DNA of 54,055 bases. It comes from a virus (lineage: Duplodnaviria; Caudoviricetes). Under the pieces are notes generated by a model. It did no database searches. It saw only the letters and a program-made list of their open reading frames with translations, and had not been told where the DNA came from. Shown piece by piece: positions 1 through 53,977 of this stretch; positions within the stretch are counted from its first letter, which is position 1, and each line of letters begins with the position of its first letter. A program made the position numbers and the translations under genes. The stretch is from positions 1 through 54,055 of IMG/VR virus record IMGVR_UViG_3300017565_000023, one strand, 5' to 3'.

Positions 1-3000
1 ATCACGCCGCCCGCGCCCATATCCATGTAGGCCCGGTTGATCGCCCCCGCCGACTTCAGCTCGCCGAACCGGCCCGCCAGCGTCGGATATGCCACCATCG
101 CAACCTGCATGGCGTTGATCAGCGAATAGGCCGGTGAGAACAGGCGCGCCATGAACGTCAGGGTCATCAGGTCGCGCAGCGCCTTACCCGGCGGGGTAAC
201 ATTGCCATCGTTCACCGCGGTGCGGGATGACAGCTCATTGAGGATTTCAGAGCCGCGCTGGCGGCCGGCGCCCATCAGCTCCTCCTGCTGCACCTTGCGC
301 ATCTCGCCCATGGCTTCACGCACCGCCGGCATGTGCTCCATGCGGGCGATATAGCCCGACGCTGCCGACGTGTAATCGTGGACGGCGCGCGCCATGTCAG
401 CGCTGGCCCCCTTGACCATGCGGCGGGCGATCGAGCGCTGCTGCACCCGCGTGCCGGACATCATGCGCGCAGCCGCCTCATAGATGGCGATGCGCATCTC
501 GGCCTTCTGCTGCTCGCCCATGTCGGTGCGGCGCGCCACGGCGCCCAGCAGCGACGCCAGCTGGCTGGATGACAGGTCGTCCTGCGAATACCAGTCCTTG
601 CGCTGCAGCACCACGGACACCGACGTGTATTCGTTCGACGCCTTGGCGGCGCGGGCGAACTCCTGCGCGTCGTTCATGCTCTCGAAGAACTGCACGCCCT
701 GCGTCTGGACATAGGCGCGATAGGCGACATCCACGTCATGGCCGGCGGCGTCGGCAGCGCTGACCGGCTCGCCCGTCTCGCGCAGATAATAGCGGCGCCG
801 CACCGACGTGATGGGCAGGCCGGTGCTGTCGGCGAACTGGTTGAACAGGGCGCGCGCCGCCTTGTCGTCAGCCGCCTTGAACTCCACCACGCCCGGCTCC
901 ACCTCCTTGCCACCCTTCAGGTCGCCACGGTTGAGGTGCGTCACCACGACATGCTCGCCGCGCCGCATCAGCGGGAAGTAGTCGCCGTCGGTGCCCTTGA
1001 TCAGCCGGGCCTTGGCCAGATCGTTGAACATGGTCGGGCCAAGCAGCGTCTTGTCGGCTTCGTCCAGCGTGCCGGCGAGCGCGCGGTTGACCAGTCCGTC
1101 ACGCTGCTGCGCGGTCAGCCCCTTGCGCTCCTGCAGCACGGACTGGCCCACTGCCCGGGCGGTGTCGATGCGCGTCTTGGTGAAGAACTGCTGGCTGTCC
1201 ATCCATAGCGCCCGCAACTCTGCCGGCATGGCCATGAACCGCTTCTGCAGCCCCTCCAGCTGGGCCAGCTTCTGGCGCGCGCCGGCGGCGGTCTGGCTCA
1301 GGTGCTTGTTGTGCTCCAGCAGTGTCTCGCGGGTCCAGCGCGGGTCGTTCAGCATCTTCACGTCCATCGACGTGACATCCACAGCAAGGTCGCCGTAGTC
1401 GGCCATCCTGTCCCGGTGGTTGCGGATTGCCTCCACATACTTCTGGGTCAGGTCGGCGCCATCCTTCGCATACTTCTCGGCCGTCTGGTCGATCTGCAGC
1501 ATGCCCGTGACAGCCCGGTTCAGCCAGTCAGTGCCCTCGCGCGTGAACAGCCCCTCGCCGCTCTGGCGCAGCTGGTCCAGCGTCATCAGGCGGGTCATGA
1601 CGCGCCGCGCCTTGGTGGTCAGCGTGTTACCCCGGTCGGTAACCTGCTCCATGCTCATGCGCGGCGCCAGCGGCGATGCAGCACCCTGCCGCAGGCTGTA
1701 CAGCGGCGGCCGGCGCTCGGAGATGTCCAGCAGGCGCTCGCCCTGCAGCATGGCCATTTCCAGCATGTTGCGCGACGGCGCGGACCTGACGCCGATGAAC
1801 TGCAGCATGCTGTCGACCAGCCGGCTCATGGACGCGACGAACTCGGACCACATGCTGCGGTTGGGATTGAGCTGCACTGACAGCCCTGCCGTCGCCGGCG
1901 TGACGCGCAGCAGCTCCTGAAACTCCGAATTGGAGAATGCCTCGGAGATGAACTCGTGGACGTTGCTCAGGCCATAGACATTGTAATCCGCCGGCAGCTG
2001 TTGCTTGACGACATCCAGCATGTTCTGGATGCGGGCCATTTCAACAGGGTTGTTTTCGATGGTGTCATGCACGGCGGCGTGCAGCATTTCGTGCAGCACA
2101 AGGCGCGTCTGTCCTTCGCCGCCGTCCAGCATGTCTGAACGCAGCGCCACATATTGCCTGCCGTGTTCATCGCGACTGTAGAAACCTTCTGGCGCTGCCG
2201 TCCATCCATTGCGGATGATCGTGTCGTCAACGGTCAGTGCAACCATGGCTTCAGGCGACAGCACGTAGACCGGCACATGGCCAGCGATGCGGTCGAGGAT
2301 CGGCCCCAGCTGCCGGGAGACGGCGTTGAAAATCGGGCCATTGTCCGCCGTCGCGGCGCGCGCCAGCATGTCACGGCCGGTCGTGGCGCCCATGGCAAGG
2401 GCGCGGATTTGCGCGCTGGTGCGCTCGCGCCCCCGGCCCGCCCACTTGTTGATCAGCTGGCTCCAGCCGGCCGTCGTCGGGGAGCTGGACATGGATGCGC
2501 GTATGCGCGGCGGCTCGGCAGCGGGCTCCTCCAGCGTCGTCGCCATGTCAGGGTTGAACGCTGACACGGTGTCACCCTTCAGCCATTCACTGAACTCGGC
2601 CCGGGACATCGGCACGATGGACTGGATGCGGTCGGCTCCACGGCCGTCGCTGAACGAGTTTTCATAAGCAGTGCGCGCAGCCTCCTCAGATGGGAAGCCC
2701 ATCATCACCTTGTGCTCATCAAATGAACCATCAAGGTTCTGCTGGTTGATCATGAATATCTGCTTGGCCAGCTGCGACGGGCCAAGGAACACGTCAACCT
2801 GATCTCCATCAGCGCCAGTCGTCCGCTTGATGTAGCCATAGTCCACCGGCATGGTGACTTCCCAGCCGGGACCGCGCCGCTTCTGGCCGCGCGCCGTCTC
2901 CACGGTGACATCATGGCCCATGAACTTGCGGTGGCCCTTGGCATAGTTCCCTGCCTCGGCCTGAGCCTGCGATGCTGGCGCGACCGGCCGGCGGCGCTTG

Positions 3001-5516
3001 CTGGCCACGGCGAACTTGCCTGCCTTGTCCTCGCCTGCCGTGACGGTGCTGTTGTCCTGCTCCGGCGCTGCTACAGGCTTGGGCGTGACCTTGCGACGAA
3101 CCGTGGTGCTCTCCACCTGCCGGTCGTCCGGTGTCGCCGCTACAGCATTTGCCACGCCCTCGTTTGCGTCGATCGACACATTGCGCTCGATCCCGGCGGC
3201 GCGCGCTGCCTCGTCGCTGGTGGCGCGGCGGCTCGCCATGAACGCGGCGGGGTCCTCTTTCACCGCGGCGGCGTCGGCAGCGAACTGGACCAGCCGCTCC
3301 ATGGACACATTCTTGCCTGCGCGCAGGTCATTGCCCAGCGCCTGTGCATCGCGCAGGAACACGGTGGCGCCGCGGTCGTCGGTGCGGCCGGACAGGTCAA
3401 CGCCCCGCTCCTGCGCCAGTGACATCATGCTGTCGATGACAGCCAGCGTGCCCTTGCCATCGCCAATGGCGCGCCCGGTCACCAGTGGCATTTCGCTCGT
3501 GATGTCGGCAGCTGTGCGCTCGGTCTGCGCCCGCCGCTCACGCTCCTGCCGGGTTGCGGCGGCCTGCGCGTCCTCGGTCACAGCCTCGCCCGAATACACC
3601 TGCGACACGGTCTCATCATGCACCGCGCGCCGGGCTGTCATCCATGCCTCGCGCTGCGCTTGGGTCAGGCGACCGCTCTGCTGCGCCATGGTGCGCCAGT
3701 TCTCGGTCATCTGCTCGGGTGTGACGCCGCCAGCGATGGCGCGGTCGATGATGCGCTTGATCGCCTGACGGTCCTCGCGCGACCCCAGCTGGTCAGGGTC
3801 CGACGTGAGCTTGGCAGCAGTGTTCTCGCCGCGTACAACGCGCGCTGCCTCCGGCGCCGACACACGCGCCCGGTTCAGCTGGTTGGCCTTTTTCTCGGCC
3901 GCCTCGTCTTCGAGCGAGCGCAGGACGCGCGGTCCGCGCGGGGCCTCGCTGGTCGCCGTCTGGGGCGCCTGCAGGTCGGTCTTCAGCTCATCCAGCTGCC
4001 GTCCGACAGCGTCGATGCGCTCAGTGGTCGACGGGCTGGTGGTCACCTGCTCTCGTGGCTGCTCCACCACTGGCGTGACAAGGCTCTCAATCTGCGCGCC
4101 AATATCGGCAAGGGAGGCTTCCGTATTGTCCAGTTGCGCCGTGACATCATCGGATGCTGGCGCGGTTACCTCCGGGGTAGGCTCGATGATCGCAGCAAGC
4201 GGGTCCGCCGCCGGCTCGGGGGCAGGCGTCGCCACCATGGGCTCGGCGTCAGGGTCCTCGTCCAGAACCGCGTCCGGGGCCGCAGGAGGGGCGTTCTGCT
4301 GGACCGGGGCCTCCATGGGGGTCTGGGCCGGGGCGCCCTGTGCAGGCGGCTGGCTGACCTCCGGTGCGGCCATGTCAGGGGCAGGCGCGGTGATGGCGTT
4401 CTCGTTGGCGGTCTCCAGCCCTGCAGCGGTGTCAGGGTCGACAGCGCCGACGGTGGCGCCATCGCGCTGCCCGACCTCCACCTCTTTGTGACGTCCGCCG
4501 GCGACATGGCCAACGCCGCCCACTGTGCCACCAGTCAGGCCGCCCAGAATACCGGCCTGCACCGACGCCTCCAGCGCGCCGGAGATGTCAGGGTCAGACA
4601 GCGGCAGGGAGTTGCGCTGCTCATAGTCGCGGATGGCGAGCCGCTTGCTGGCTTCCTGCGTCCCCTGATCCAGAAACTCGTTGACCGCTTCACCCTTGGC
4701 GGCCCGGCCAATGGCGCGACCAAGCCCGCCGCGCCCCAACGTACCGGCGCCAATCATGCCCTCCACGCCGACGGTGGCCAGCGCGCCGGACGCGAGGAAC
4801 TGGTAAACCGCCTTGTTGCCGATGGCGCCCTGAATGAGCATCTCGCGCGCTTCCTTGGGCGCAATGCCGGCGTCGAGATATTCCGAGAACTCGGGGATGT
4901 TCTGGCGCAGGTCGTCATCCGACATCTTGCCGAACAGGTCGCGCAGGTCTTTGGTGAAGCCGCCCGCACCCATCGCGCCGGCAGCTGCAGAGCCGCCCGG
5001 GATACCGCCCAGAAGGGCCGCGCCCATGGATGGCACCAGTGAACCAAGGCCCTGCGCCATCTTGGTGGTCAGCGCCTCTTTCAGGCTGACGTCGCTGTCC
5101 CAGACGTTGCGCTCACCCTTGGAGCGGTCAGCGCCCCACAGCTTGGCGGCCAGCGCGCGCTTGGCGCTCTCCGACATGCCATCCACGAGACTGTCGGCAG
5201 TTGAGCGCAGTGTGTCGCGGACACCGTCGACGGCTCCGGCGTTGGCGCGGTCCTGTGGGTTAAGGTCGGTCCCGGCGGCGAGGACGCCCATGTCCTGCCC
5301 GCCCTGCACGGCGTCGGCGGTTGCGCCAATGGCGCCGGCGGCGAAGGCGCGGCCCGTATTGCCAAAGAACCCCGGTTCATCCTTGCGCGGCGGGGTCGGC
5401 GACGCGAACAGGTTGTCGTCCAGCTCCATGTCGGGAGCGGGGGCCGCATCTGGTTTGGTCTTGGACGCCGGGGCCGCAAACAGCGTGTCGTCCAGTTCAA
5501 AATCAGATGCAGCCAT
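1..5516 (-). CDS. Large polyvalent virion/ejection protein (partial, >1830 aa; 3' end outside the window) with inorganic-pyrophosphatase-like, zincin metallopeptidase and PLxRFG-like motifs
   Basis: Not in the ORF track, consistent with no stop inside the window. ATG at 5516 (MAASDFELDD...). In the same frame I read MPVDYGYIKRTTGADGDQVDVFLG...FDEHKVMMGF (~2690-2950), VLHEMLH (2079-2099) followed by YGLSNVHEFISEAFSNSEFQELL, and GDYFPLMRRG (~957-986). Frame checked at these points, not at every codon. Confidence 0.85.
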   Translation of the reverse strand, partial: MAASDFELDDTLFAAPASKTKPDAAPAPDMELDDNLFASPTPPRKDEPGFFGNTGRAFAAGAIGATADAVQGGQDMGVLAAGTDLNPQDRANAGAVDGVRDTLRSTADSLVDGMSESAKRALAAKLWGADRSKGERNVWDSDVSLKEALTTKMAQGLGSLVPSMGAALLGGIPGGSAAAGAMGAGGFTKDLRDLFGKMSDDDLRQNIPEFSEYLDAGIAPKEAREMLIQGAIGNKAVYQFLASGALATVGVEGMIGAGTLGRGGLGRAIGRAAKGEAVNEFLDQGTQEASKRLAIRDYEQRNSLPLSDPDISGALEASVQAGILGGLTGGTVGGVGHVAGGRHKEVEVGQRDGATVGAVDPDTAAGLETANENAITAPAPDMAAPEVSQPPAQGAPAQTPMEAPVQQNAPPAAPDAVLDEDPDAEPMVATPAPEPAADPLAAIIEPTPEVTAPASDDVTAQLDNTEASLADIGAQIESLVTPVVEQPREQVTTSPSTTERIDAVGRQLDELKTDLQAPQTATSEAPRGPRVLRSLEDEAAEKKANQLNRARVSAPEAARVVRGENTAAKLTSDPDQLGSREDRQAIKRIIDRAIAGGVTPEQMTENWRTMAQQSGRLTQAQREAWMTARRAVHDETVSQVYSGEAVTEDAQAAATRQERERRAQTERTAADITSEMPLVTGRAIGDGKGTLAVIDSMMSLAQERGVDLSGRTDDRGATVFLRDAQALGNDLRAGKNVSMERLVQFAADAAAVKEDPAAFMASRRATSDEAARAAGIERNVSIDANEGVANAVAATPDDRQVESTTVRRKVTPKPVAAPEQDNSTVTAGEDKAGKFAVASKRRRPVAPASQAQAEAGNYAKGHRKFMGHDVTVETARGQKRRGPGWEVTMPVDYGYIKRTTGADGDQVDVFLGPSQLAKQIFMINQQNLDGSFDEHKVMMGFPSEEAARTAYENSFSDGRGADRIQSIVPMSRAEFSEWLKGDTVSAFNPDMATTLEEPAAEPPRIRASMSSSPTTAGWSQLINKWAGRGRERTSAQIRALAMGATTGRDMLARAATADNGPIFNAVSRQLGPILDRIAGHVPVYVLSPEAMVALTVDDTIIRNGWTAAPEGFYSRDEHGRQYVALRSDMLDGGEGQTRLVLHEMLHAAVHDTIENNPVEMARIQNMLDVVKQQLPADYNVYGLSNVHEFISEAFSNSEFQELLRVTPATAGLSVQLNPNRSMWSEFVASMSRLVDSMLQFIGVRSAPSRNMLEMAMLQGERLLDISERRPPLYSLRQGAASPLAPRMSMEQVTDRGNTLTTKARRVMTRLMTLDQLRQSGEGLFTREGTDWLNRAVTGMLQIDQTAEKYAKDGADLTQKYVEAIRNHRDRMADYGDLAVDVTSMDVKMLNDPRWTRETLLEHNKHLSQTAAGARQKLAQLEGLQKRFMAMPAELRALWMDSQQFFTKTRIDTARAVGQSVLQERKGLTAQQRDGLVNRALAGTLDEADKTLLGPTMFNDLAKARLIKGTDGDYFPLMRRGEHVVVTHLNRGDLKGGKEVEPGVVEFKAADDKAARALFNQFADSTGLPITSVRRRYYLRETGEPVSAADAAGHDVDVAYRAYVQTQGVQFFESMNDAQEFARAAKASNEYTSVSVVLQRKDWYSQDDLSSSQLASLLGAVARRTDMGEQQKAEMRIAIYEAAARMMSGTRVQQRSIARRMVKGASADMARAVHDYTSAASGYIARMEHMPAVREAMGEMRKVQQEELMGAGRQRGSEILNELSSRTAVNDGNVTPPGKALRDLMTLTFMARLFSPAYSLINAMQVAMVAYPTLAGRFGELKSAGAINRAYMDMGAGGV

Positions 5517-5526: not shown

Positions 5527-8500
5527 CTAGGTGTCTTCGTCCCGGCCAGCCGCCGTATTGCGGGACACACTAACACCAGACTGCGCACCGGGTACATAGT
5601 TGCGGCGGCGCAGGTCTACGCCCGTGCGCTCCGCCTCGCGATCGCGCCGGTAGGCGTCGATGCTTTTCTTGGCGTTGGCGCGCGATGCTGCGGTGCGCGG
5701 TGCGGAGCTGGCGTTGCGTGCGACGCGGCGGTCACCCTTGGGCTGCTCCTGCACCACCATGGAGTTGCCGCGCAATGCCTGCACCAGCTCGATGCTGCGC
5801 CGGTCGAGATAGACCGGGTCGCCGCTGCCGATGCGCACGCGCCCGTCGCGCTCCAGCCCGATGGTCCGGTTGTTCTTGTCGAACATCCGGGCGGTGATCT
5901 GGGCGGCGTCCTCCGGCGACACGTTCGGGTTGCCGTTGACGATGGATGCTGCGATGGACTTCATGCGCGCCTTGGCCTGCGGATTGATCTCGCGATCTTC
6001 CGGCAGGATCGTGCCGAATGCGCTGTCCAGCGACTTGTCCAGCGTGGTCGGCGCGGCGCGGGTCCGGCCCGGCTTCAGCTGCTGCTTTTTGTATGCAGCG
6101 TCGGCCACTGTCGCCATGTTCTGCGCCGCACGGACACCACGTTCCCTGTTGAACGCAGCAGCTGTCTCCGGCGCGCCCTCCATTTCGGTAGCTGCGCGAG
6201 CCTCGGGGCCGGCCTCGCCTTGCGTGCCTGCGGGCATTTGCATGGTGGGCGCCGTCCGGGCAGGCGTGTTGCCAGCCATCGACTGGTCATTTTGCGCCAT
6301 GGACGGTAGGGCTGCAGGAGCATTGGGCGTGCGGATCGGCGCCGTCTGTTCATCCACAGGCTGGGTGGGAACGGCGCTGTTCTGAACAGGACCAAGATCA
6401 AGGGCTGCAGCTGCATCAGCATCAATGGCCTGTGCCTTTCTCTCGTCAGCGGTGGTGCGCGCGGAACCGGCGGCGCGGGGCTGCGCCAGACGGCGGCGCT
6501 GGCCCTCCATGTAGATGTCGTGGCGCTCCTTGGCCCGGCCGGCGCTCTCCTCGGCGCGGCGGTCGCGGCGTGCCTCGGCCTCGGTCATGCCAGACTTCTT
6601 GGGCTGGCTCATGAGACCCATGGCGCGATACCACAGCGTACCGTCGCCCATGCCGGTGGCCAGCTGCGTCAGCTGGTTGAGGGTAACCTCGCCCTTCTGC
6701 GTCAGGTTGCCGTCCGCGTCGAACATCTGGATGCGGACACCCTTGTTACCCACCGGGGTAGCTTCGATGCTCTGGCCAGTCGGCAGGGCGCCGTATGCCT
6801 GCTCCACGGTGCGCGCCGCGCCCTTGGTGTCACCACGCTCAGCCTGCACCTGCAGCACCGGGCCGGCGGCGGACAACACGCTCTTGGAATACATGAGCAT
6901 GGACGCCGCGTAGTTCTTGGCCTTGGCCGCGTCGCCCTTGTCCAGATAGAACTTGTAGCCCGCATAGAGACGGGCAATCTGGCGCGCGCCGGCGCCCAGC
7001 TGGCCATTGGGGTCAATGGCGCTGTCGACCTCGCGGATTTCCGATGGTCGCGCCGCGCCCTCATTGCGCGCAAAGCGCTGCAGCCCCTGCTGCCGGGCGG
7101 CGGGGTCCTGCTGGTTTGCCAGCTGATAGTTCTCGGTGATGCCCTGCATGCCGGCAGCGACGACTTCCGGCAGGCGATCGACGCCCTCGCGCGCCACGGC
7201 GCTGGTGTCATACTGCTCGCGCTGCTGGGGCATGGGGGCGGGCTGGCCCTGCTGCTCACGCACCGCCTGCGGCTGGGTGGCGAAGAACGGGACCGGGCCT
7301 TCATCCTCCGGCGCCTTGTCTGGCACCGCGCCGCCGTCGGCGAACGCCCATAGCCCCTGCTGCTGGTCCTGCGTTGGCGACATGGCCGCGCCGCTGTTGA
7401 AGTCGACAGGCTGGAACTGGGAGACGCCCTGCGGGCCGCCCTGCACCATGTTGCCATCGGCGTCGATCATCCACGGCGGCACGCCCATCTTCATGAGCTG
7501 GTCGCGGCGCGCCGCTACATCACGCACACGCTGGCGCTCGGCCGCCTCCGCCGCGGCGGTTGCGCGCGACTGCTCGAACTGCTGCATGCGGTCCTGACGC
7601 TGGGCGGCGAACTTGTCGCCGGCGCCGGTCATGTAGTCCTCGTAACGGTAGGAGCGCGTCGGCTCAGTCGGCGCCCGGGCGCTGGGGCGCTCGCTGGGCG
7701 TGTACTGGAACTGGTCGAGGAACACGCTGCCGCGCCGGTCGGGGGCCTGCGACTGCCAGCCCGCCGCCACACCAGTGTCCGCTGTCGCACCGCTGGGCAC
7801 AGCGCCGCCGTCAGCCAGCGCGACGGTGTTCACGCCACCATAGGACCCGCCGGGGATGGCGGAGCGCGGGAGCGGCGGGAGACCTGCGGCGGCCCGCTGG
7901 CGGTTGGTGTAATCGTCGGCGTCGTCAGCGGCGGCCCGGCGGTCATCCGGCGTCTGCTCGCCATCATCCACCGGCAGGGCTGATGTGGGCGCGGGAGCGC
8001 TGGCCTGCTGCACCGGAACGCTGCCGGGGGTGTTCATGTACTTGTTGGCGCGCGCAATGCGGTGATCCTTCCTCGGGCGCAGGAAGCTGTTCACGATCGC
8101 AGCGCCGGCCTCGCCAGCCGTCTTGGTCTTCAGGATTTGGTCGTAAGCCGCTTTCTCGGGACCCTGCAGCTCATGCACCATGAAATCCAGCTGCGTGTCG
8201 ATGTTCGACAGCGACGTGCCGCGCTCCTTGGCGTACTGCTCATAGGCAACGCGGCGCGGGCCGGTGACCTGATACAGGCCGAACCCGCCGCGCGATCCCG
8301 GGATGGTGGGCTTGGCCTCGTTAATGCCCGGATTGAACCCGCTTTCGTCCTGCATGTTCATGACGAAGCCGTCGGCGATATGCTCAGGCAAGCCACGGTC
8401 AATCAGGCCGGCGCGGATATACTGGGCGCGCTCACCAAGGTTCCCGATGTTGGCCTGCTGCGACGCCGCGTCGGCGCCGGACGTGCCAGCATCGCTGGTG

Positions 8501-8695: not shown

Positions 8696-9832
8696 TCAGA
8701 CAGGCAATGCCGCCGTATTCACAACAGGGCGCGCGGGCGGCGCGTTTCGTTCGGTCGGGCCAGCGCCAACATCAACCGGCAGCGCCTGCCGTTCCTGCTT
8801 CGCCTTGCCGATCATCTGGTATAGCTGCTTCTGGCCGATCCATTCCACAGCTTCCTTGGGCATGACAAACTCGCCCGCGTTGAGCCGGGCCGGGACATCG
8901 TCCACGTCCTCGCCGCCCGACGGTGACATGCCTTCATCCACCGGCACGCCGCTGTGGGCTGGGCCGTCGACCGGGACACCCTGCTGGGGCACCGCGCCGC
9001 CGTCGGCGAGGCCGATCAGCTTGGCGCCGATGCCACCGACAAGGCCCAGCATGGAGCCAATACCAGACGACTGGTTGGCGCTGTTCTCGGCCTTGTAGGC
9101 GTCAAGGGCGTTGTTGTAGCCCATGTTCAGCACGTTGCCCCACGTCCCGATGGACTGGTTGGACAGGCCCTGCCACTGCGCGGGCGTGCCCATGGTGTTC
9201 GCGCCGGTCGCCGTGGTGGCGATGCCCGCGTTCACGCCGGAGTTACCCGACTGGGTAGCCGTGTTGTAGGCGCCCTGAATTTGCGCGGGGTAACCCTTGC
9301 CAATGTTAATCGCCTCGGAGCGCAGGGCGCGGCCGGTGGCCTCCACCTGCTGACGCGCCTGATTGCCGGCGGATGCGCGGGCGGCGGCTTCCTGCATGCG
9401 CGTCGAGACATCCAGCGCACCGGCGCGCGTCTGCGACGGGTCAATGCCGTAGCTCTCCAGCCGGTCCTGTGCGGCGGTGCGCGCCATCTCGAACTGCTGG
9501 GAGACGTCAGCCTGCGCGCGGCCGGCCTCATACTCCTGCCGTTCCGGGTTGGCGTATTCGCGCGCCTCCCACGCAAGGTCGTCCTCCAGCGGCTGGAAGA
9601 TGTCCTCGTAGCGGGCGCGATCGGCGGCGGCCTGCGCATCCGTCTGGTCGAGGCGGCGCAGCGCGGCCTCAATGACGCTGTCGGACACGTCACGGTCGAG
9701 GAAATACTGTTCCTTGGCCCAGTTAAGCTGCTCGCGCGCCACCTCGGCAGAGATGGCTGCGCTTTCTTTTGATGCCTCCGCGACCGGGGTATAGTCGGGC
9801 GGCGGCGGCGCCGAATTTTTACCTCCACCCAT
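8696..9832 (-). CDS. Internal virion / DNA-ejection (pilot-like) protein
   Basis: Probable start MGGGKNSAPPPPDY at 9832. Ala/Gln-rich helical body, Gly-rich hydrophobic stretch, C-terminal DDVPARLNAGEFVMP motif; position typical of podovirus ejection proteins. Confidence 0.7.
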   Translation of the reverse strand: MGGGKNSAPPPPDYTPVAEASKESAAISAEVAREQLNWAKEQYFLDRDVSDSVIEAALRRLDQTDAQAAADRARYEDIFQPLEDDLAWEAREYANPERQEYEAGRAQADVSQQFEMARTAAQDRLESYGIDPSQTRAGALDVSTRMQEAAARASAGNQARQQVEATGRALRSEAINIGKGYPAQIQGAYNTATQSGNSGVNAGIATTATGANTMGTPAQWQGLSNQSIGTWGNVLNMGYNNALDAYKAENSANQSSGIGSMLGLVGGIGAKLIGLADGGAVPQQGVPVDGPAHSGVPVDEGMSPSGGEDVDDVPARLNAGEFVMPKEAVEWIGQKQLYQMIGKAKQERQALPVDVGAGPTERNAPPARPVVNTAALPV

Positions 9833-9903: not shown

Positions 9904-10371
9904 TCACCACCCATTTAAGTCTCTCCCTCTCCGATATGCGACTTTCACATCGCGCTGCGGCATATCCAGATAGCGGCAGGCTTCGCGCTTCATCGCGAGC
10001 ACAACCATAGCACCATCTGGGAAAACGTCATCTATTCTGGTGATCTCGCTGAAGCCAAGCCGCTTGTCAAACTCCAGCGCGGCAGCGTTGCTTGCCTTCA
10101 CCTGCCCGAAAATTGTGTTTACCTTCAACTGCCGGAAGGGGTAGTCAAAGCATATCCAAAGCATGTCCTTGGTTACCCAACGAGGTAACAGGGATGCCAC
10201 ATGCATGCTGATGCTTACCTCATAATAGGCAGTGTAGATCACACCGCCTGCGAGCTGGCCATCAATTGTGTTTGCGATGTTTACATCGCACTTGGGGTTG
10301 TAAGTTGCCCCGGCTTCATCTGCGAGCAGGTGACCAAAATCCTCGTCATTAACGACGATCTGGTAGCTCAT
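9904..10371 (-). CDS. GNAT-family acetyltransferase (virion-module associated)
   Basis: FDYPFRQLKVNTIFGQVKASNAAALEFDKRLGF resembles the RimJ/RimL-type GNAT motif. Sits between the nozzle and ejection genes, as in many podoviruses. Confidence 0.75.
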   Translation of the reverse strand: MSYQIVVNDEDFGHLLADEAGATYNPKCDVNIANTIDGQLAGGVIYTAYYEVSISMHVASLLPRWVTKDMLWICFDYPFRQLKVNTIFGQVKASNAAALEFDKRLGFSEITRIDDVFPDGAMVVLAMKREACRYLDMPQRDVKVAYRRGRDLNGW

Positions 10372-12258: not shown

Positions 12259-12277
12259 TGCTTACCCCAGAAGGTAA

Positions 12278-14220: not shown

Positions 14221-14311
14221 CGTTTTTACCTTTCAGGTAACCGGCGCCGAACAGGGCCGCTGCCAGCGCCAATGCACCAGCAGCCAAAAGCAATGGGGCA
14301 TAGGCATTCAT
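14051..14311 (-). CDS. i-spanin (Rz-like)
   Basis: N-terminal TM helix ending GAGYLKG, then a short periplasmic domain with two Cys; directly after the endolysin. Confidence 0.7.
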   Translation of the reverse strand: MNAYAPLLLAAGALALAAALFGAGYLKGKNDGQVDQLKSSVEAYRERSDIDARVRTGSDYQLCLDLGGLPDQCQQLRGMDPAAKGK

Positions 14312-32281: not shown

Positions 32282-32335
32282 GGTTACCTCCCGGGTAACC
32301 GACCCTCCTCACAAGTGAGGGCCGGCCGTCGCGTA

Positions 32336-36978: not shown

Positions 36979-37040
36979 TGTTGTCAGGCCGGCGCTCACC
37001 ACGCCTGCCGCACAACTTCATTACCCCGGAGGGTAACGCC

Positions 37041-41527: not shown

Positions 41528-41545
41528 TACCCGGAGGGTAACCCG

Positions 41546-42928: not shown

Positions 42929-42984
42929 CCGTCGGCGGGCGCGTGCTATCACGCGCTCACCCACCCGTTACCCGGGAGGTAACC

Positions 42985-43581: not shown

Positions 43582-43608
43582 CCGCACTTACCCCCGGAGG
43601 TAAACACC

Positions 43609-43929: not shown

Positions 43930-45169
43930 AGCTGTCGCGCTGACCCCGGCGCAGGAGCGCGACTGGGAGAAGTGCCGCGCCGCGGTGCTTCACCAGACGC
44001 CATTCTTCACCCACATCCTCTACACCATGATGTCGCGGGACGGGCTGGCGCTGTTCACCCGCCACCCGGCGGTGCCGATCGCCGCGACCGATGGCCAGCG
44101 CCTGATCCTGAACCCGGACACGTTCTTCAGGTTCTCATTGGCGGAGCAGGTGTTCATCATCGCCCATGAGGTGCTGCACTGCGTGTTCGATCACCCGGGG
44201 CAGGGCTTCCGCATGTCGCAGGCCGGCAAGGTGGTGTATTCCACCGGCGCCGAGCTGCCGTTTGTCCATGACATCCACAACAAGGCCGCCGACTATGTCA
44301 TCAACGACATGCTGATCGAGGACAAGGTTGGGAGCTTCCCCCCCATTGCCCTGCATGATCGCAGCATCGGCAACAGCCACGATGCCGTGGTGGACGTATA
44401 CGCCAAGCTGTTCGACAAGGATGGGGCCGGCGGGGGTGGCAAGGGCGGCAAGGGCTTTGACGTTCTGCTGAAGCCCGGCAGCGCCAGCGGTGAGCCGGCG
44501 CAGCAGGTCGTGGACAGCCGCAACGAGAATGAATGGCGCATGGCTGTCACGTCCGCCATGGCCGCCGCCAAGGCGCAGGGGAAGATGCCCAGCAACATGG
44601 AGCGCGTGCTGGGCGAGTGGCTTACCCCGTCGGTAGACTGGCGCGAGTTCATCCGCTCCACCTTTGCCCGCAACCTTGGCTCCGGCAGCTGGAACTGGAA
44701 GCGCCCCAACCGGCGTGCTATCACGCGCGCCGACCGGCTGGTGCTCCCGACCAGCATGGGCGACATGGCGGGCCACGTCTGCGTCGCCATCGACACCTCC
44801 GGCTCCATTACCGACCAGCTGCTGACCGTGTTCTTCAGCGAGATGGCCGGCCTGCTGGAGGAGGTGCGCCCGCAAAGCGTGAGCGTGCTGTGGTGCGACG
44901 CCCGCGTCCACCGCATCGACATGATTGAGGAGGTCAGCGATCTGGCCGCCCTGCAACGCAAGGGTGCGCCGGGCGGTGGTGGCACCGACTTCCGCCCCGT
45001 GTTCGAGGCCATCGACATGATGGAGGAGCAGCCTGAAGCGCTGGTGTTTCTCACTGACGGGTGGGGCTCATTCCCGGCCGAGGAGCCGGATTATCCCACA
45101 ATCTGGGGCACCGTCGGCAAGAAGCCTGACGACTATCCCTTTGGCGAGGCGGTGACGGTCAGCGTCTAA
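43892..45169 (+). CDS. DUF2201-like HExxH metallopeptidase fused to a VWA domain
   Basis: AATDG, AHEVLH, NKAADYVIN; MIDAS motif DTSGS, GGGGTDF, LTDG. Confidence 0.9.
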   Translation: MATNTIRPLPTFEAVALTPAQERDWEKCRAAVLHQTPFFTHILYTMMSRDGLALFTRHPAVPIAATDGQRLILNPDTFFRFSLAEQVFIIAHEVLHCVFDHPGQGFRMSQAGKVVYSTGAELPFVHDIHNKAADYVINDMLIEDKVGSFPPIALHDRSIGNSHDAVVDVYAKLFDKDGAGGGGKGGKGFDVLLKPGSASGEPAQQVVDSRNENEWRMAVTSAMAAAKAQGKMPSNMERVLGEWLTPSVDWREFIRSTFARNLGSGSWNWKRPNRRAITRADRLVLPTSMGDMAGHVCVAIDTSGSITDQLLTVFFSEMAGLLEEVRPQSVSVLWCDARVHRIDMIEEVSDLAALQRKGAPGGGGTDFRPVFEAIDMMEEQPEALVFLTDGWGSFPAEEPDYPTIWGTVGKKPDDYPFGEAVTVSV

Positions 45170-45194
45170 GCTGCCGTTACCCATGGAGGTAGCA

Positions 45195-45845: not shown

Positions 45846-45875
45846 TTGACACAGGTTTACCCGTGGTGGTAACTG
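45846..45875 (+). promoter_or_regulatory. Putative sigma70 promoter of thyA, overlapped by a palindromic site
   Basis: TTGACA at 45846; TACC-N6-GGTA at 45858-45871 covers the spacer and -10 region; the -10 match is weak. Confidence 0.5.
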
Positions 45876-46901: not shown

Positions 46902-47058
46902 AGATTGCAGCAGGGCAGGCAAATAACCTGCTGCATAGTGTGGTGCGGTGCTGGAGCGGAAGCACACCCGGGCGTATCCCCCGGGCGGCCCTGTCGTGGA
47001 GCCAATAGCGGGTTAGCGCCCCGCCACCACACGCCCCCTCCCTACCCAAGAGGTAACC

Positions 47059-47515: not shown

Positions 47516-48070
47516 ATGGCGCTGCTCCCGACCCAGCGCATACGCGCACTGGCCCAGCAGGGCATGATCACACCCTTCGATGAGCGTGGCCTGTCCAACG
47601 GCCGCACGTATGGGCTGGGGCCGGCGAGCTACGACCTGCGCCTCAAGGACACGACATGGGTATGGCCCGGCTGGGGACGGCTGGGCCGCACCATTGAACG
47701 CCTGAATATCCCGGATGACGTCGGCGCGCTGGTCAAGGCCAAGAGCACCAACGCCCGGGTGTTCATCAACGCCTCGCAGAGCACGTTCGTTGATCCGGGG
47801 TTCGCCGGCACGCTGGTGGTGGAGATGACCCGCCACCTGCCGTGGCCGGTGCGGATCAAGGCAGGCACGCCCATTGCGCAGCTGCTGTTCCTGCGCTGCG
47901 AGGAGCCCACCGAAATGCCCTACAGGGGCAAATACCAGAACCAGCCAGACGCCATCACCGGCGCCATCTTTGAAGACACGCTGACGGTTACCCAGCAGGT
48001 ATCCCTGAAGCTGTCCAAGGTGCTGCTCGCCGCGGCGCGCTGGCTCCGGTCAACCGGAGACAGGACATGA
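47516..48070 (+). CDS. dcd: dCTP deaminase
   Basis: GPASYDLRL, KSTNAR, VDPGFAGTLVVE, YRGKYQNQ; start MALLPTQRI at 47516. Confidence 0.88.
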   Translation: MALLPTQRIRALAQQGMITPFDERGLSNGRTYGLGPASYDLRLKDTTWVWPGWGRLGRTIERLNIPDDVGALVKAKSTNARVFINASQSTFVDPGFAGTLVVEMTRHLPWPVRIKAGTPIAQLLFLRCEEPTEMPYRGKYQNQPDAITGAIFEDTLTVTQQVSLKLSKVLLAAARWLRSTGDRT

Positions 48071-48574: not shown

Positions 48575-48593
48575 ATACCCCCCGGAGGTAACC

Positions 48594-49687: not shown

Positions 49688-49716
49688 CCTACCCCGGAGG
49701 TAACAGGAGCAGCACC

Positions 49717-50416: not shown

Positions 50417-52288
50417 ATGGCCCCAAAGTACATCGTTGCCGACTTCGAGACATACTACGACACCGAATATTCATTGAAGCGCATGACGCCGGTTGAATAC
50501 ATCCTTGACCGGCGCTTTGAAATGAATGTCGTTGCCATATGTGAAGACGACAACGGGCCAGCGTTCACGTTGGAGCATGACGACTTCTGCCGTTACCTGA
50601 ATACCCTGCGGGGTAACCCGGTGGCGGTGCTGTCCCACAACGCCCTGTTTGACATGTGCATCCTGTCATACCGCTATGGCTGGACGCCGCCCCTGATGAT
50701 CGACACCATGGGCATGGCCCGGGCGCTGATCTATCCCCAGACTGGCAAGGTGTCGCTGGCGGCATGCGTGGAGTATTTTGGCGTCGGCAAGAAGGGCGGC
50801 TTTCTGGCCAATGTCCGGGGCCTGTACAAGGACCAGATCAAGGCGCGGGGCCTGTGGGAAGGTCATTGCAGGTATGCGATGGATGACGCCACACAGGAGC
50901 GCGACATCTTCAAGGCCATGCGCCCGCACTTCCCGCGCAGCGAATACGCCGTGATGGATCAGGTGCTGCGCTGCGCCGTGCAGCCATCGTTCGTGCTGGA
51001 TGCGCCGCTGCTGCATGAGCACTATGCTGACGTGGTGCGGGCCAAAGAGGAGCTGCTGCAGCGCACCGGGCTGACCGACCGCAAGGCGCTGATGTCCGAT
51101 GTCCGCTTTGCCGAGGTGCTGGAGGGGCTGGGCGTCGAGCCGCCTACCAAGGTGTCGCCGACGACGAACAAAACCATCTATGCATTCGCCAAGTCCGACA
51201 AGGACTTTGTCGACCTGATGGAGAACCACCCCAACCCGGACGTGCAGGCTGTCTGCGCCGCGCGCCTTGGCCACAAGAGCACCATTGAGGAGACGCGGAC
51301 CCAGCGGTTCATCAACATTTCCCGGCTGACGTGGGCCGACGGATCGTCCGGCGCCATGCCAATGCCGCTGCGCTATTCCGGCGCCCACACCCACCGCCTG
51401 TCCGGCGACTGGAAGCTGAACGTCCAGAACCTTGGTCGCGGCTCCAAGCTGCGGCATGCGCTGAAGGCCATGCCCGGCATGAAGGTGGTGGCCGTCGACG
51501 CCTCCCAGATCGAGGCGCGCATGAACGGCTGGTTCAGCGGCGAGGAGGAGCTGACGAACGCCTTCGCTGCCGGCGAGGACATCTACTCCCTGTTCGCCGG
51601 CGAGGCCATCTACGGTTACCCCGTGAGTAAGGCGACCCACAAGGATGAGCGCTTTGTGGGCAAGCAGTCCATTCTTGGGCTTGGCTATAACATGGGGGCG
51701 CCGAAGTTCCAGAACACGGTGCGTGTCGCATCCCGCAACGAGCTGAAGCGGGAGATGATCATCCCGGAGGAGGAGTGCCGGCGCATCGTGCAGGCATACC
51801 GGCGGCGCTATGCCAACATCACAGCCCGCTGGAAAACGCTCCAGCAACTGCTGCCGCAGATGGCCATGCAGGGCTTCCAGCACGAGATGGGGCCGGTCAG
51901 GTTCATCCACAACGCCATCGTGCTGCCCAACGGCATGCTGCTGCAGTATCATAACCTGCGGAACATGGGCGACGGGCAGTGGGCGTTCGATTTTGGCAAG
52001 CGCATCAAATACATCTACGGCGGCAAGATGCTGGAGAACATCATTCAGGCGCTTGCCCGCATCTGCACCATGGACGCTGCCGTGCGCGTCGCGCGGCGGT
52101 ATCATAACTACGGGGTGCGCCTTGCATCACAGGTGCATGACGAAATCATTTTCGTTGTGCCAGAATGGCTGGCCGAGGAGGTGAAGCTGGCCTGTATCGA
52201 GGAGATGCGCCGGCGCCCGTGGTGGGGGCCAGACATCCCGCTGGACGCCGAGGGGGCAACCGGCCTGACCTATGGGGACTGTAAATGA
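50417..52288 (+). CDS. DNA polymerase family A with 3'-5' exonuclease domain
   Basis: DFETYY, HNALFD, motif A DASQIEAR, motif B RFVGKQSILGLGY, ENIIQALAR, motif C VHDE. Confidence 0.95.
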   Translation: MAPKYIVADFETYYDTEYSLKRMTPVEYILDRRFEMNVVAICEDDNGPAFTLEHDDFCRYLNTLRGNPVAVLSHNALFDMCILSYRYGWTPPLMIDTMGMARALIYPQTGKVSLAACVEYFGVGKKGGFLANVRGLYKDQIKARGLWEGHCRYAMDDATQERDIFKAMRPHFPRSEYAVMDQVLRCAVQPSFVLDAPLLHEHYADVVRAKEELLQRTGLTDRKALMSDVRFAEVLEGLGVEPPTKVSPTTNKTIYAFAKSDKDFVDLMENHPNPDVQAVCAARLGHKSTIEETRTQRFINISRLTWADGSSGAMPMPLRYSGAHTHRLSGDWKLNVQNLGRGSKLRHALKAMPGMKVVAVDASQIEARMNGWFSGEEELTNAFAAGEDIYSLFAGEAIYGYPVSKATHKDERFVGKQSILGLGYNMGAPKFQNTVRVASRNELKREMIIPEEECRRIVQAYRRRYANITARWKTLQQLLPQMAMQGFQHEMGPVRFIHNAIVLPNGMLLQYHNLRNMGDGQWAFDFGKRIKYIYGGKMLENIIQALARICTMDAAVRVARRYHNYGVRLASQVHDEIIFVVPEWLAEEVKLACIEEMRRRPWWGPDIPLDAEGATGLTYGDCK

Positions 52289-52590: not shown

Positions 52591-52610
52591 TTACCCACAT
52601 GGGTACTGTG

Positions 52611-52679: not shown

Positions 52680-53405
52680 ATGTTCAAAATCACGACTGTC
52701 GATCACGGCAGCGGACAGGTCGTCATCAAGCCGTTCACATGGAGCTATTCCCGGCTGAAAAGTTTCGAGACCTGCCCGAAGCGCCATTGGCACGAGGACA
52801 TCGCCAAGGATGTCCCGCGCGACGCCAGCCCGGTGCTGGACAAGGGCAATGACGTTCACATCGCCATCGCCCGCTATCTCACCAAGGACATCCCGATCAA
52901 GGCCGGCGGCCATATCGAGGAACCCCTCGCTGCCGAGATGCGGCGCTGGTGCGACATGATCAAGGCCGTGCAGGTTGGCCAGCTCCACGTCGAGCAGAAG
53001 CTGGGCATGACCCGCGAGCTGAAGGGCTGCGCATTCTTCGCCAAGGACGTCTGGTATCGCGGCGTCTCGGACGTTACCCGCGTGGTAGGTCCGGTGGCCG
53101 CCGCCGTCGACTGGAAGACCGGCAAGGTGAAGGAAGACGGCACGCAGCTGGCCCTGATGGCCGCATGCATCATGGCCCATTACCCCGAGGTGCAGAAGGT
53201 CCGCACCGAGTTCGTCTGGCTGGAACATAACAAGTCCAGCCGCGCCGACTTTGCCCGCAGCGACATGACCACCCTGTGGGCGCACATGCTGCCGCGCATT
53301 GCCCAGCTGGAGACCGCCACCAAGAACAGCGAGTTCCCGGCCAAGCCCGGCGGGCTGTGCAAGGGCTGGTGCCCGGTCAAGCAATGCGCCCACTGGTCAC
53401 CCTGA
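52680..53405 (+). CDS. PD-(D/E)XK (Cas4/RecB-like) exonuclease
   Basis: WSYSRLKSFETCP, VEQKL, DWKTGK, QL, C-terminal LCKGWCPVKQC. Confidence 0.88.
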   Translation: MFKITTVDHGSGQVVIKPFTWSYSRLKSFETCPKRHWHEDIAKDVPRDASPVLDKGNDVHIAIARYLTKDIPIKAGGHIEEPLAAEMRRWCDMIKAVQVGQLHVEQKLGMTRELKGCAFFAKDVWYRGVSDVTRVVGPVAAAVDWKTGKVKEDGTQLALMAACIMAHYPEVQKVRTEFVWLEHNKSSRADFARSDMTTLWAHMLPRIAQLETATKNSEFPAKPGGLCKGWCPVKQCAHWSP

Positions 53406-53416: not shown

Positions 53417-53977
53417 ATGCGCCCGTTCTATGAGGCATTCGTTGAAGCCATCCGGTTTATGTCAATGGTCGACCGGGGCGGCTCCCTGCAGATGCTGGAC
53501 AGCAACCGGCTCCGCGCTCACCTGCTGGAGAAGTTCACCCAAGCCATGGATTTTGGCGCTTACCTGCCGGTCGGCTCCGCGCAAATATACGTCTCCGATC
53601 AAACATTGCGGGAGCTTGAAAACGCGGTAATGGCGGCCGGCGCGCAGGTATCGCAAGCTGTCAACAACGCTGCTTCCAGCAAGTTTACTATGGCCGGTGC
53701 GACTTTTGTTGGGGCTGGCCGCTACTTCTTCATCGAGCAGCTATACCAGACCATGAGCGCCGCGAAGCTGGGCGACACCTACGCCGAGATTATGACTGCA
53801 CGCAACCCTGACGACACGGTTACCCTGCGGGTAGCGATGTCCCTGTCTCACCTTGGCTATGCAGGGGCGGAGAAGGCCGTGGTGAGCGAGCGCATCCCGA
53901 TGCCGACCATGTGGTCCGGCAGCAGTGAGCTGGCTGACCAGATCACCACGAAAATGCTGCTGTTGATGGGAAGGTGA
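53417..53977 (+). CDS. Hypothetical protein
   Basis: AAGGA Shine-Dalgarno before ATG 53417. Confidence 0.65.
   Translation: MRPFYEAFVEAIRFMSMVDRGGSLQMLDSNRLRAHLLEKFTQAMDFGAYLPVGSAQIYVSDQTLRELENAVMAAGAQVSQAVNNAASSKFTMAGATFVGAGRYFFIEQLYQTMSAAKLGDTYAEIMTARNPDDTVTLRVAMSLSHLGYAGAEKAVVSERIPMPTMWSGSSELADQITTKMLLLMGR

Follow-up and report, generated by a model that had tools for sequence, protein, structure and literature searches.

A genome-wide array of TACC-N5/6-GGTA palindromes in a phage clade: candidate recognition sites for a phage-encoded DNA-binding protein

Genome-wide arrays of a single short site are rare in phages, and the studied cases, such as the stoperators, exposed a new layer of control. 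The stoperators of cluster A phages are asymmetric 13-bp sites that are oriented with transcription and bound by the immunity repressor. In papillomaviruses, ACC-N6-GGT is read by an E2 dimer, which assists in loading a superfamily-3 helicase, controls transcription and also tethers genomes. The alpha protein of phage P4 is among the self-loading initiator helicases that act at iteron origins. In SaPIs, the Rep-type origins are described as having 6-12 iterons at one origin beside rep, around an AT-rich stretch, with the Reps binding iterons of 5-6 nt, some of them opposed, via a flexible domain that bears a C-terminal winged helix (PMC9371898). Cluster K phages carry the SAS, which is described as a non-palindromic motif in one orientation, 3-7 bp from start codons and only in the non-structural half, that overlaps the ribosome-binding site, is missing from the host genome and is kept across subclusters; the accompanying ESAS has inverted arms around a variable spacer, and RNA pairing is not supported for it (PMC3203893).

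The DNA analyzed here (henceforth the window) is a whole phage record of 54,055 bp, in which we found 45 exact copies of TACC-N5/6-GGTA (24 with an N5 and 21 with an N6 spacer) and one N7 copy at 48576 (Table 1). A preliminary description of the same DNA was right about their abundance but put the exact copies at 43; the lone N7 copy, the near-equal frequency of the two spacers and four one-mismatch copies (at 36432, 38092, 41116 and 51617) were all found again. As a class, one-mismatch copies barely exceed chance, with 13 (N6) and 7 (N5) in the window vs 6.3 and 6.6, respectively, in shuffles when all matches of 0-1 mismatch are counted. Spacers of 0-4 nt yield zero copies, those of 8-20 nt yield 0-2 copies per length, and the reversed pattern, used as a control, has 2 matches. 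The extended consensus in the window, (G)T-TACC-Y...R-GGTA-A(C), recovers the inner Y/R and outer G/C letters proposed earlier, and the full palindrome takes the form GT(T/a)ACC(Y)-N3/4-(R)GGT(A/t)AC. The literature searched yielded no published description of the array, in keeping with its earlier labeling as undescribed.

Dinucleotide-preserving shuffles of the window (n=100) produced a mean of 0.16 N5 copies (maximum 3) and 0.04 N6 copies (maximum 1). The codon-preserving shuffles suggested in the preliminary description (n=300) left the array standing: they produced a mean of 1.9 sites (sd 1.3) and never more than 6, vs the 45 real ones. Similarly, the related Rhizobium phage RHph_TM27A has 44 sites vs 3.4 in shuffles. 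The array is genuine, and the evidence for it is stronger than the preliminary description gave.

Both kinds of shuffle rule out a by-product of chance, composition, codon usage or a repeated peptide, a reading to which we assign next to no probability. Of 114 intragenic N6 sites, 96 do share one frame, in which they read GTT ACC nnn nnn GGT AAC; however, this bias has its own cause, since one frame holds a stop codon and another rare codons, and both non-coding DNA and unrelated genes also carry sites.

Table 1. Palindromic sites in the window, with the distance to the next start codon where one follows closely (the strand field is "." for every site)
Site	Position	Strand	Context
N6	185..198	.	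within giant virion-protein ORF 3-5516(-)
N6, full GTTACC..GGTAAC	1628..1641	.	within ORF 3-5516(-)
N5	4167..4179	.	within ORF 3-5516(-)
N6	6747..6760	.	within ORF 5527-8685(-)
N6	9244..9257	.	within ORF 8696-9910(-)
N6	10174..10187	.	within ORF 9904-10389(-)
N6	12263..12276	.	4 nt before ATG of ORF 10561-12258(-)
N6	13756..13769	.	within ORF 13598-14011(-)
N5	14227..14239	.	between ORFs 13598-14011 and 14308-15177
N5	15061..15073	.	within ORF 14308-15177(-)
N5	15587..15599	.	3 nt before in-frame ATG (probable true start) of ORF 15188-15703(-)
N5	18545..18557	.	within ORF 16214-19345(-)
N6	20700..20713	.	within ORF 20242-20928(-)
N5	21310..21322	.	intergenic, 3' of capsid gene 21366-22343(-)
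N5	23288..23300	.	within ORF 22370-23458(-)
N5	24363..24375	.	within ORF 24300-24650(-)
N5	26996..27008	.	within ORF 26838-27371(+), gene preceding large terminase
N5	29382..29394	.	4 nt before ATG of ORF 29168-29377(-) (sub-threshold HTH_17)
N5	32285..32297	.	3 nt before ATG of ORF 32138-32281(-)
N6	33525..33538	.	ORF 33071-33757(-); 7 nt before ATG opening 148 codons
N5	33725..33737	.	5' end of ORF 33071-33757(-), or inter-arm region
N6	34835..34848	.	5 nt before ATG of first right-arm ORF 34854-35144(+)
N6	36276..36289	.	within ORF 36115-36318(+)
N6	36768..36781	.	5 nt before ATG (63 codons)
N6	37022..37035	.	5 nt before ATG (153 codons)
N5	37793..37805	.	gene junction; ~19 nt before ORF 37825-38106(+)
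N6	38424..38437	.	6 nt before ATG of ORF 38444-38710(+)
N6	38696..38709	.	5 nt before ATG (91 codons)
N5	39187..39199	.	within ORF 38971-39270(+)
N5	40011..40023	.	7 nt before ATG (136 codons)
N6	40427..40440	.	5 nt before ATG (115 codons)
N5	41528..41540	.	5 nt before ATG of ORF 41546-41788(+)
N5	42137..42149	.	within MoxR-type ATPase gene 41843-42928(+)
N5	42969..42981	.	early part of Nmad5 ORF 42886-43581(+); 3 nt before TTG (may be start)
N6	43589..43602	.	6 nt before ATG of ORF 43609-43929(+)
N5	44623..44635	.	within DUF2201 gene 43892-45169(+)
N6	45178..45191	.	3 nt before ATG (166 codons)
N6	45858..45871	.	intergenic; TTGACA hexamer (by eye; absent from promoter scan) 6 nt earlier
N5	47043..47055	.	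3 nt before ATG of ORF 47059-47514(+)
N5	47989..48001	.	stretch 47514-48067, without confident gene call
N7 (only copy)	48576..48590	.	3 nt before ATG of ORF 48594-49487(+)
N5	49690..49702	.	gene junction; 14 nt before ATG of ORF 49717-50415(+)
N6	50602..50615	.	within family-A DNA polymerase gene 50417-52288(+)
N6	52592..52605	.	intergenic; promoter-like TTGACA-17-TATGGT at 52611-52639 starts 6 nt on
N5	53075..53087	.	within PD-(D/E)XK nuclease gene 52635-53405(+)
N5	53821..53833	.	within ORF 53276-53977(+), gene uncertain

The sites occupy the structural genes and both genome arms at a mean spacing of ~1.2 kb. Gaps in the window range from 200 to 2,958 bp, as expected from the earlier statement that none is much over 3 kb, and their coefficient of variation of 0.65 was matched for evenness by 0.12% of 5,000 random placements. 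The earlier estimate that about half the sites lie in coding sequence also holds, with 21 of 45 intragenic, 15 at 1-12 nt before a start codon and 9 otherwise intergenic, a few of these assignments being uncertain because the gene calls of the window are home-made. In seven genomes with 289 sites between them, 177 are intragenic and 51 start-associated; five of the seven have 1.6-2.8 sites per kb of non-coding vs 0.4-0.9 per kb of coding DNA, the former being about fourfold denser. Sites are also retained at stop-start junctions; this and the non-coding enrichment are additionally compatible with a role in gene expression. Taking up the earlier argument that overlap with ribosome-binding sites does not explain the sites, we likewise see a selected genome-wide system and not a by-product of such overlap.

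The start-associated subset raises the alternative that the sites act in mRNA, with a hairpin holding the Shine-Dalgarno sequence and controlling translation, coupling or processing at gene junctions. The 15 such sites in the window come with GGAG(G) in the spacer or the 3' arm, and among 102 TAACC..GGTA variants from 14 genomes a start codon lies 1-11 nt downstream in 70, while in 56 the TAA ends an open frame of at least 40 codons. We nevertheless regard this alternative as improbable: the pooled sites are mostly intragenic with a small start-associated share, and start junctions would simply be inexpensive spots for a site, because its right half-site overlaps the Shine-Dalgarno consensus. 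Moreover, pairing itself appears not to be what is conserved. Across nine genomes, compensated double variants number 195 vs a background of 182, so that stem compensation is not enriched, while the single-arm variants AACC..GGTA (71) and TACC..GGTT (32) stand against a background of 5 each, and a variant with an A-A stem mismatch is common. No covariation of flanking pairs was found within genomes, and Rfam has 0 matches in the window.

Much the same evidence bears on the sites being single-stranded DNA hairpins, or marks for nicking, priming or base modification, which we consider a shade more improbable. Counting the fifth pair, the loops would be 3-4 nt long; in the relative G005 this pair is C:G in 30 of 34 N5 and 8 of 8 N6 sites, the mean site spacing resembles the size of Okazaki fragments, and genes for a DNA ligase, a thymidylate-synthase homologue and an Nmad5 domain are present in the window. 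However, covariation of the fifth pair is absent in the other genomes, and the ligase, thymidylate-synthase homologue and Nmad5 genes have no relatives in the six genomes compared. Six sites folded as single-stranded DNA with DNA parameters had energies between -2.1 and -6.9 kcal/mol; their z-scores lay between -1.7 and +0.5, no improvement on shuffled sequence, and in two of the six the expected hairpin fails to form. Hence, the hairpin in DNA or RNA that the preliminary description had offered as an alternative is disfavored by the lack of compensatory enrichment and within-genome covariation, the tolerance of single-arm changes and the weak folds; the sequence itself is read, beyond pairing alone.

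The same array is present in 12 related genomes, including the cultivable RHph_TM27A, at 14-54 copies each, as opposed to 1-7 for reversed-pattern controls. The portal and capsid of array-bearing relatives are ~55-65% identical to those of the window, and the genes common to the clade (portal, capsid, terminase and replication genes) show ~35-75% identity. A 13th relative, G014p, has 6 sites and lacks the whole replication module, with a site density in its structural genes within the range of the others. Between the 93.7% identical genomes G006 and G007, 24 of 25 aligned sites are kept, and third-codon positions in half-sites changed in 2 of 84 cases vs 1,136 of 10,012 elsewhere (Fisher p = 0.005), while those within spacers changed in 6 of 37. 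The conservation at synonymous positions that the preliminary description had named as a check is thus seen in the half-sites and not in the spacers: purifying selection acts on the former and not on the latter. The spacer is N5 in 34 of 42 sites of G005, the only genome to favor it; the occurrence of both N5 and N6 within single genomes is unusual for a rigid dimer. The sister prophage G021p shares the gene set (capsid 57%, DNA polymerase 46%) and has 0 TACC sites; it carries 13 copies of TGCTC-N4-GAGCA, extended to GTTGCTC-N4-GAGCAAC. This switch from GTTACC to GTTGCT suggests that site and protein may co-evolve. In G018p and G020p, which are related more distantly, there is a homologue of the helicase and no array.

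Some members of the clade may be temperate, because relatives are embedded in bacterial contigs: the genes on either side of G021p are bacterial, and a 465-kb Pseudolabrys contig holds two copies; the scan of window proteins turned up no integrase. Moderately high GC is common to all clade members whose source is named or binned, and several are tied to Rhizobiales, which could fit sites that are targets of a host protein, as the preliminary description had allowed. However, in two Bradyrhizobium genomes (8.7 and 7.9 Mb) GTTACC-N5/6-GGTAAC is confined essentially to phage-type contigs: outside them there are 0 copies in the former and at most one, on a small unidentified contig, in the latter (reversed controls 2 and 1). 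Given that this 12-letter form is absent from both chromosomes and that the inner letters are swapped in G021p, a host binder is very unlikely.

We therefore return to proteins encoded by the phages themselves. The palindromes probably serve as duplex-DNA recognition sites of a sequence-specific protein that the phage encodes, in line with the protein-binding reading first proposed, the predicted sites having the look of protein recognition sites. Such a binder would read two inverted half-sites of 6-7 bp, GT(T/a)ACC(Y), with centers 11-12 bp apart, or about one helical turn, and selection would maintain tens of them genome-wide, wherever coding permits. The likeliest binder may be the putative winged-helix C-terminal domain of a fused primase/DUF927 self-loading helicase; in that case, a palindrome would amount to two opposed iterons, and the array could supply many helicase-loading or priming points, or titrate the initiator. 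Taken as a whole, a phage-encoded duplex-DNA binder that is likeliest this domain is our best explanation, held tentatively and at somewhat under an even chance. The specific assignment to the clade's primase-helicase is that of a possible candidate, and the fuller proposal, in which the replisome reads its own genome by using ~45 dispersed opposed-iteron pairs as distributed loading or priming points and marks the DNA as self, is slightly more doubtful; the effective absence of the motif from the host chromosome is what would allow such marking.

The primase-helicase gene is seen only in the relatives (n=13), being missing from the window because the contig stops before its place. Its product matches Pfam DUF927 (E = 1.2e-20), primase/helicase PHROGs and, by sequence, the SCCmec Cch helicase and a SaPI Rep; a model of its final 230 residues (pLDDT 70) has the same two as best matches, with probability of at least 0.98 and low TM scores. 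Of nine replication proteins it retains the fewest group-conserved residues in G021p (0.68; others 0.76-0.88), and that of G005 is the most divergent of the group (29% identity vs 37-47%). The resulting signal of covariation with the site is weak, because the large terminase drops equally in G021p (0.68) and the primase-helicase is the fastest-evolving of the protein set. Just downstream of the gene no site cluster was found in the 13 genomes (10 sites in the first kb vs 7.4 expected), so the SaPI/P4 type of origin is not reproduced. The presence of the helicase without the array in G018p and G020p, and of sites without the replication module in G014p, counts against the primase-helicase as binder.

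A serious rival to the primase-helicase is a stoperator-type operator array, read by a dedicated phage regulator or coating protein that is not the helicase and that silences, times or shields transcription genome-wide, possibly in lysogeny; we see this as possible, if doubtful. It would account for the higher density of sites in non-coding DNA, for a site abutting a predicted promoter (52592) and another following a TTGACA hexamer (45858), and it agrees with the possible temperate lifestyle; the cluster A stoperators and the SAS/ESAS system (PMC3203893) provide precedents. The unrelated lambdoid provirus G010 also has 13 copies of a TTACC-N5-GGTAA core, four of them around divergent cI-like (HTH_3) and cro-like genes; however, it has no gene in common with the clade, and its sites lie in AT-rich intergenic DNA and are N5 only, with the look of ordinary operators. 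Against this rival, most sites are intragenic, the scanned window proteins include no integrase, and no conserved HTH-type regulator emerged when 615 predicted proteins of nine genomes were clustered (BLASTP E < 0.01), a search that small fast-evolving proteins could escape. Of the two HTH candidates named in the preliminary description, 29168-29377 has a sub-threshold HTH_17 match and a relative in one of six related genomes, and 31188-31718 has no family match. A conserved early protein family (35141-36118 in the window) has a confident all-helical model without a meaningful structural match.

The array is old, persisting across genomes whose proteins are about half-identical with letters that differ between lineages, and it is imposed on most phage genes with measurable selection even at synonymous positions. 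Genome-wide co-evolution between a protein and its sites could be tested here, with RHph_TM27A available as a cultivable member, and the motif is an inexpensive marker for a widespread, barely studied group of soil phages.

Among the known systems, the papillomavirus E2 sites agree in the inner three letters and the 6-nt spacer; they belong to a eukaryotic virus and are few, with a fixed spacer, we identified no E2-like protein in this analysis, and the likeness may be a coincidence. The clade has a helicase homologous to the SaPI Reps with a putatively related C-terminal domain and, as at the SaPI origins, short half-sites, GT(T/a)ACC, in inverted orientation, while the GTAAC..GTAAC variant is a direct repeat; a flexible DNA-binding domain of that kind could accommodate both N5 and N6. 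In contrast to those origins, there are tens of dispersed pairs, none clustered by the gene, and with the self-loading primase-helicase as binder, phage replication would be organized in a new way. Compared with the cluster K motifs, the motif is likewise short, conserved and absent from the tested host chromosomes (two Bradyrhizobium), whereas it is start-associated in a minority of cases, both in the window and in the seven pooled genomes, and occupies both genome halves. With the cluster A stoperators, which are read genome-wide by a phage protein, the array shares tens of dispersed copies of one short site; unlike them, the site is a two-fold palindrome with N5 or N6, is found in both arms and is mostly intragenic, such that a regulator or coat as binder would make it their symmetric counterpart.

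The window is an entire IMG/VR virus record, a linear contig of 54,055 bp (62.9% G+C; completeness 89% by CheckV estimate), in which TACC-N5-GGTA occurs 24 times and TACC-N6-GGTA 21 times; one further copy has a 7-nucleotide spacer. Spacers of 0-4 nucleotides yield no copy, those of 8-20 nucleotides zero to two for each length, and the same pattern read backward occurs twice. Dinucleotide-preserving shuffles (100 each) give a mean of 0.16 copies (maximum 3) for N5 and 0.04 (maximum 1) for N6, while codon-preserving shuffles (n=300), in which each protein and the codon usage of each gene are held constant, give a mean of 1.9 and a maximum of 6. The preliminary description had proposed a comparison with the latter kind of shuffle, whose counts the 24 N5 and 21 N6 copies far exceed. 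One-mismatch copies number 13 and 7, with shuffle expectations for zero to one mismatch of 6.3 and 6.6: the sites are exact or absent, and near-matches as a class scarcely exceed chance. With the flanking letters included, the site extends to GTTACC(Y)-N3/4-(R)GGTAAC.

A megablast search with 20 kb of the window against the phage collection gave no match. In sequencing runs, the matches listed are all Logan contigs of soil metagenomes (four sources, two studies), with neither RNA data nor raw reads among them. The nearest named relative is the cultivable Rhizobium phage RHph_TM27A (portal identity 55%), with 44 copies against 2 for the control and 3.4 in codon-preserving shuffles. An IMG/VR scan for seven-letter arms recovered at least 120 stretches, and the loci with many core sites among the matches listed proved to be relatives.

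Copies of the site in related genomes, counted over the whole record, with the reversed-pattern control in brackets; G013p, G015p, G016p, G017p and G022p are phage-sized contigs of bacterial assemblies retrieved by capsid profile
Genome	Sites (control)
G005	42 (3)
G006	29 (2)
G007	50 (3)
G008	54 (7)
G009	25 (1)
G011	23 (5)
G012	47 (6)
G013p	14 (2)
G015p	43 (3)
G016p	20 (1)
G017p	23 (2)
G022p	14 (2)

The array characterizes a clade. The genomes that carry it have sets of structural and replication genes in common, at about 35-75% protein identity. The former comprise the giant virion protein, capsid, scaffold, portal and terminase; the latter a MoxR-type ATPase, a DUF2201 protein, a family-A DNA polymerase, PD-(D/E)XK and VRR-NUC nucleases, an SNF2 helicase, a DUF7307-like protein (found in many phages), a cysteine-rich acidic-tailed protein and a primase-helicase of about 1,000 residues. 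Four more distant portal relatives from IMG/VR (G001-G004; 25-38% identity) have zero to four sites and show no distinct array of another kind, and the array is absent from two remoter relatives with the same module (23-40% identity). A further genome, G014p, is a mosaic of the structural genes of the clade (capsid 75% identical to that of RHph_TM27A) and an unrelated other half; it has none of the nine replication genes and only six sites, all within the structural half.

Several genes were observed in passing. The giant virion protein has about 1,800-2,700 residues, with the window copy running off the contig end; in RHph_TM27A it includes an inorganic pyrophosphatase domain (InPase, E = 6e-48), which is odd in an ejected protein. 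The window encodes a thymidylate-synthase homologue that is extended at its N-terminus and a protein with an Nmad5 (nucleotide modification associated) domain; a modified base may be present in this phage. It also encodes an ATP-dependent DNA ligase and an Rv2179c-like 3'-5' exoribonuclease in a short leftward block after the terminase. For none of these four is a relative present in the six related genomes used for comparison. RHph_TM27A has, at the head of its early region, an open frame of 35 residues that is conserved in six other genomes (36-65% identity), including G021p (a sister prophage), and has no match in the window.

Coordinates of the genes and elements discussed in the text
Feature	Record	Position	Position in locus L086
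Giant virion protein, partial	window	3-5516	
DNA ligase and Rv2179c-like exoribonuclease	window	29611-31124	
Conserved early protein	window	35141-36118	
Nmad5 domain protein	window	42886-43581	
Promoter-like element	window	45846-45851	
Thymidylate-synthase homologue	window	45924-46901	
Promoter-like element	window	52611-52616	
35-residue early open frame	MN988461.1 (RHph_TM27A)	18202-18309	
Primase fused to DUF927 helicase	MN988461.1 (RHph_TM27A)	42248-45331	12249-15332
Giant virion protein	MN988461.1 (RHph_TM27A)	47479-54402	17480-24403
Mosaic relative G014p	G014 contig C111 (L327-L330)		
Sister element G021p	G021 contig C12 (L342-L345)	~13.7-60.2 kb	

Genes in the window run leftward to about 33.7 kb, save for the terminase genes, and rightward from 34.85 kb. 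According to gene calls made for this analysis, 21 of the window's 45 sites are intragenic, 15 lie 1-12 nucleotides before a start codon, where the spacer and right arm contain the Shine-Dalgarno letters, and nine are otherwise intergenic. Gaps between neighboring sites range from 200 to 2,958 bp with a coefficient of variation of 0.65, an evenness reached in only 0.12% of 5,000 random placements; in six of seven genomes the spacing is evener than random. Across these seven, 289 sites are divided into 177 intragenic, 51 start-associated and 61 intergenic ones, whose positions vary for the most part from genome to genome, a minority being at homologous codons. Among intragenic N6 sites, 96 of 114 occupy a single frame, GTT ACC nnn nnn GGT AAC; of the remaining frames one would introduce a stop codon and the third requires rare codons, so that the sites seem to be fitted in where coding permits. 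The fifth position shows an apparent strand asymmetry, with C..A above T..G, which vanishes in intergenic sites and is a codon-position effect.

Site density in these genomes is 0.3-0.9 per kb for coding DNA, compared with 0.6-2.8 for non-coding DNA. This fourfold enrichment would fit a stoperator-type array read by a dedicated regulator or coating protein, as would the two window sites adjoining promoter-like elements; these elements have the longer string TTGACACAG in common. An identical core seems to serve as ordinary operators in an unrelated lambdoid provirus (G010, L233-L234; 48% G+C), where four of 13 TTACC-N5-GGTAA sites surround divergent cI-like and cro-like genes. The possible lysogeny of some relatives would fit this reading as well: their location inside long bacterial contigs suggests that some members may integrate, although no integrase was recognised. 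For instance, a Pseudolabrys contig of 465 kb (L247/L248) has two copies about 62 kb apart, and the G021 relative (L342) adjoins transporter and oxidoreductase genes. However, BLASTP clustering of 615 predicted proteins from nine genomes revealed no conserved regulator. The family of the conserved early protein has no match in Pfam or PHROGs and only protein atlas leads below 0.9; its all-helical model (pLDDT 84) has no Foldseek match at E <= 0.001, with helical-hairpin matches alone (Z <= 6.6).

The preliminary description had also considered hairpins in single-stranded DNA or RNA, an alternative that several results argue against. Nine genomes together have 359 exact sites. Double variants with the pairing preserved number 195 versus 182 at irrelevant spacings; single-arm variants reach 338 against a background of 193, an excess arising from AACC..GGTA (71) and TACC..GGTT (32; background 5 each). 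The pairs that border the core on its inner and outer sides do not covary within genomes. Folding of six sites as single-stranded DNA gave -2.1 to -6.9 kcal/mol with z-scores of -1.7 to +0.5, the expected hairpin being missing in two of them, and the window has no match to Rfam families. The common variant is GTAACC..GGTAAC: of 102 TAACC..GGTA copies, 70 have a start codon 1-11 nucleotides downstream, and in 56 the TAA ends a frame that is open over 40 codons or more. In these junction variants the upstream stop lies within the left half-site, the right half overlapping with the ribosome-binding site. Two sequence-specific half-sites related by two-fold symmetry, with centers 11-12 bp apart, would be the requirement of a protein reading duplex DNA.

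The conservation of synonymous positions in relatives, suggested earlier as a check, is indeed observed in one genome pair. G006 and G007 (93.7% identical) keep the eight core letters in 24 of 25 aligned sites, and third-codon positions inside the 12 half-site letters are changed in 2 of 84 cases versus 1,136 of 10,012 elsewhere (Fisher p = 0.005; 3/84, p = 0.03 in the reciprocal direction). Spacer third-codon positions change like the background (6/37). A scan of candidate hosts, proposed in the same place, found GTTACC-N5/6-GGTAAC once in a Bradyrhizobium genome of 8.7 Mb and four times in another of 7.9 Mb (controls 2 and 1), with every copy on the phage contig or one small contig. Judged from these sequences, the site specificity appears to travel with the phage.

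The sister element G021p, which adjoins bacterial genes in a Rhodospirillales contig, has the same gene set (capsid 57%, portal 55% and DNA polymerase 46% identity) and no TACC..GGTA site. In their place TGCTC-N4-GAGCA occurs 13 times, always with a 4-nucleotide spacer; its extended form is GTTGCTC-N4-GAGCAAC, and the motif is found at most once in the 15 other genomes counted. Relative to the clade motif, the outer GTT/AAC letters are unchanged and the inner three are different. A similar motif, TGCTCT-N6-AGAGCA, is present three times in the IMG/VR record G001.

Of the conserved proteins, the primase-helicase alone comes from a family with known reading of specific DNA, and by inference it is the candidate reader of the sites. 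It matches DUF927 and primase/helicase PHROGs and, in sequence, the SCCmec Cch helicase and a SaPI Rep; these two are also the best matches when its C-terminal 230 residues are modelled (pLDDT 70). SaPI Reps are described as self-loading initiator helicases, whose C-terminal winged helix, carried on a flexible domain, binds iterons of 5-6 nucleotides, some of them opposed (passages of PMC9371898). A flexible domain of this type could explain the acceptance of both N5 and N6. In RHph_TM27A this protein is annotated as a 'putative integrase'; it is actually a primase fused to a DUF927 helicase, with no integrase domain seen.

At group-conserved columns, G021p retains the consensus at 0.68 in the primase-helicase versus 0.76-0.88 in the other eight replication proteins; the large terminase has the same value of 0.68. 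G005 is the sole genome with a strong N5 preference, and it also has the group's most divergent primase-helicase. These weak correlations would point to the primase-helicase as the reader. Against it count the lack of site clustering beside its gene, the end of the window contig before its position, and the mosaic G014p, which keeps six sites despite its swapped replication module, at a structural-gene density equal to or above that of some relatives. This density lies within the range of the others, so the swap does not discriminate on whether the binder lies in the replication module.

In the literature, searched exclusive of supplements, we found no description of the motif or of RHph_TM27A. 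The closest known systems are the stoperators, the start-associated sequences of cluster K mycobacteriophages with their extended form, whose function is given as still open in passages of PMC3203893, and the iteron origins of self-loading helicases. In the window array a defining feature of each of the three fails, be it symmetry, position or clustering. We regard the array as a variation on a known kind of system, with a real chance of its being something more unusual.
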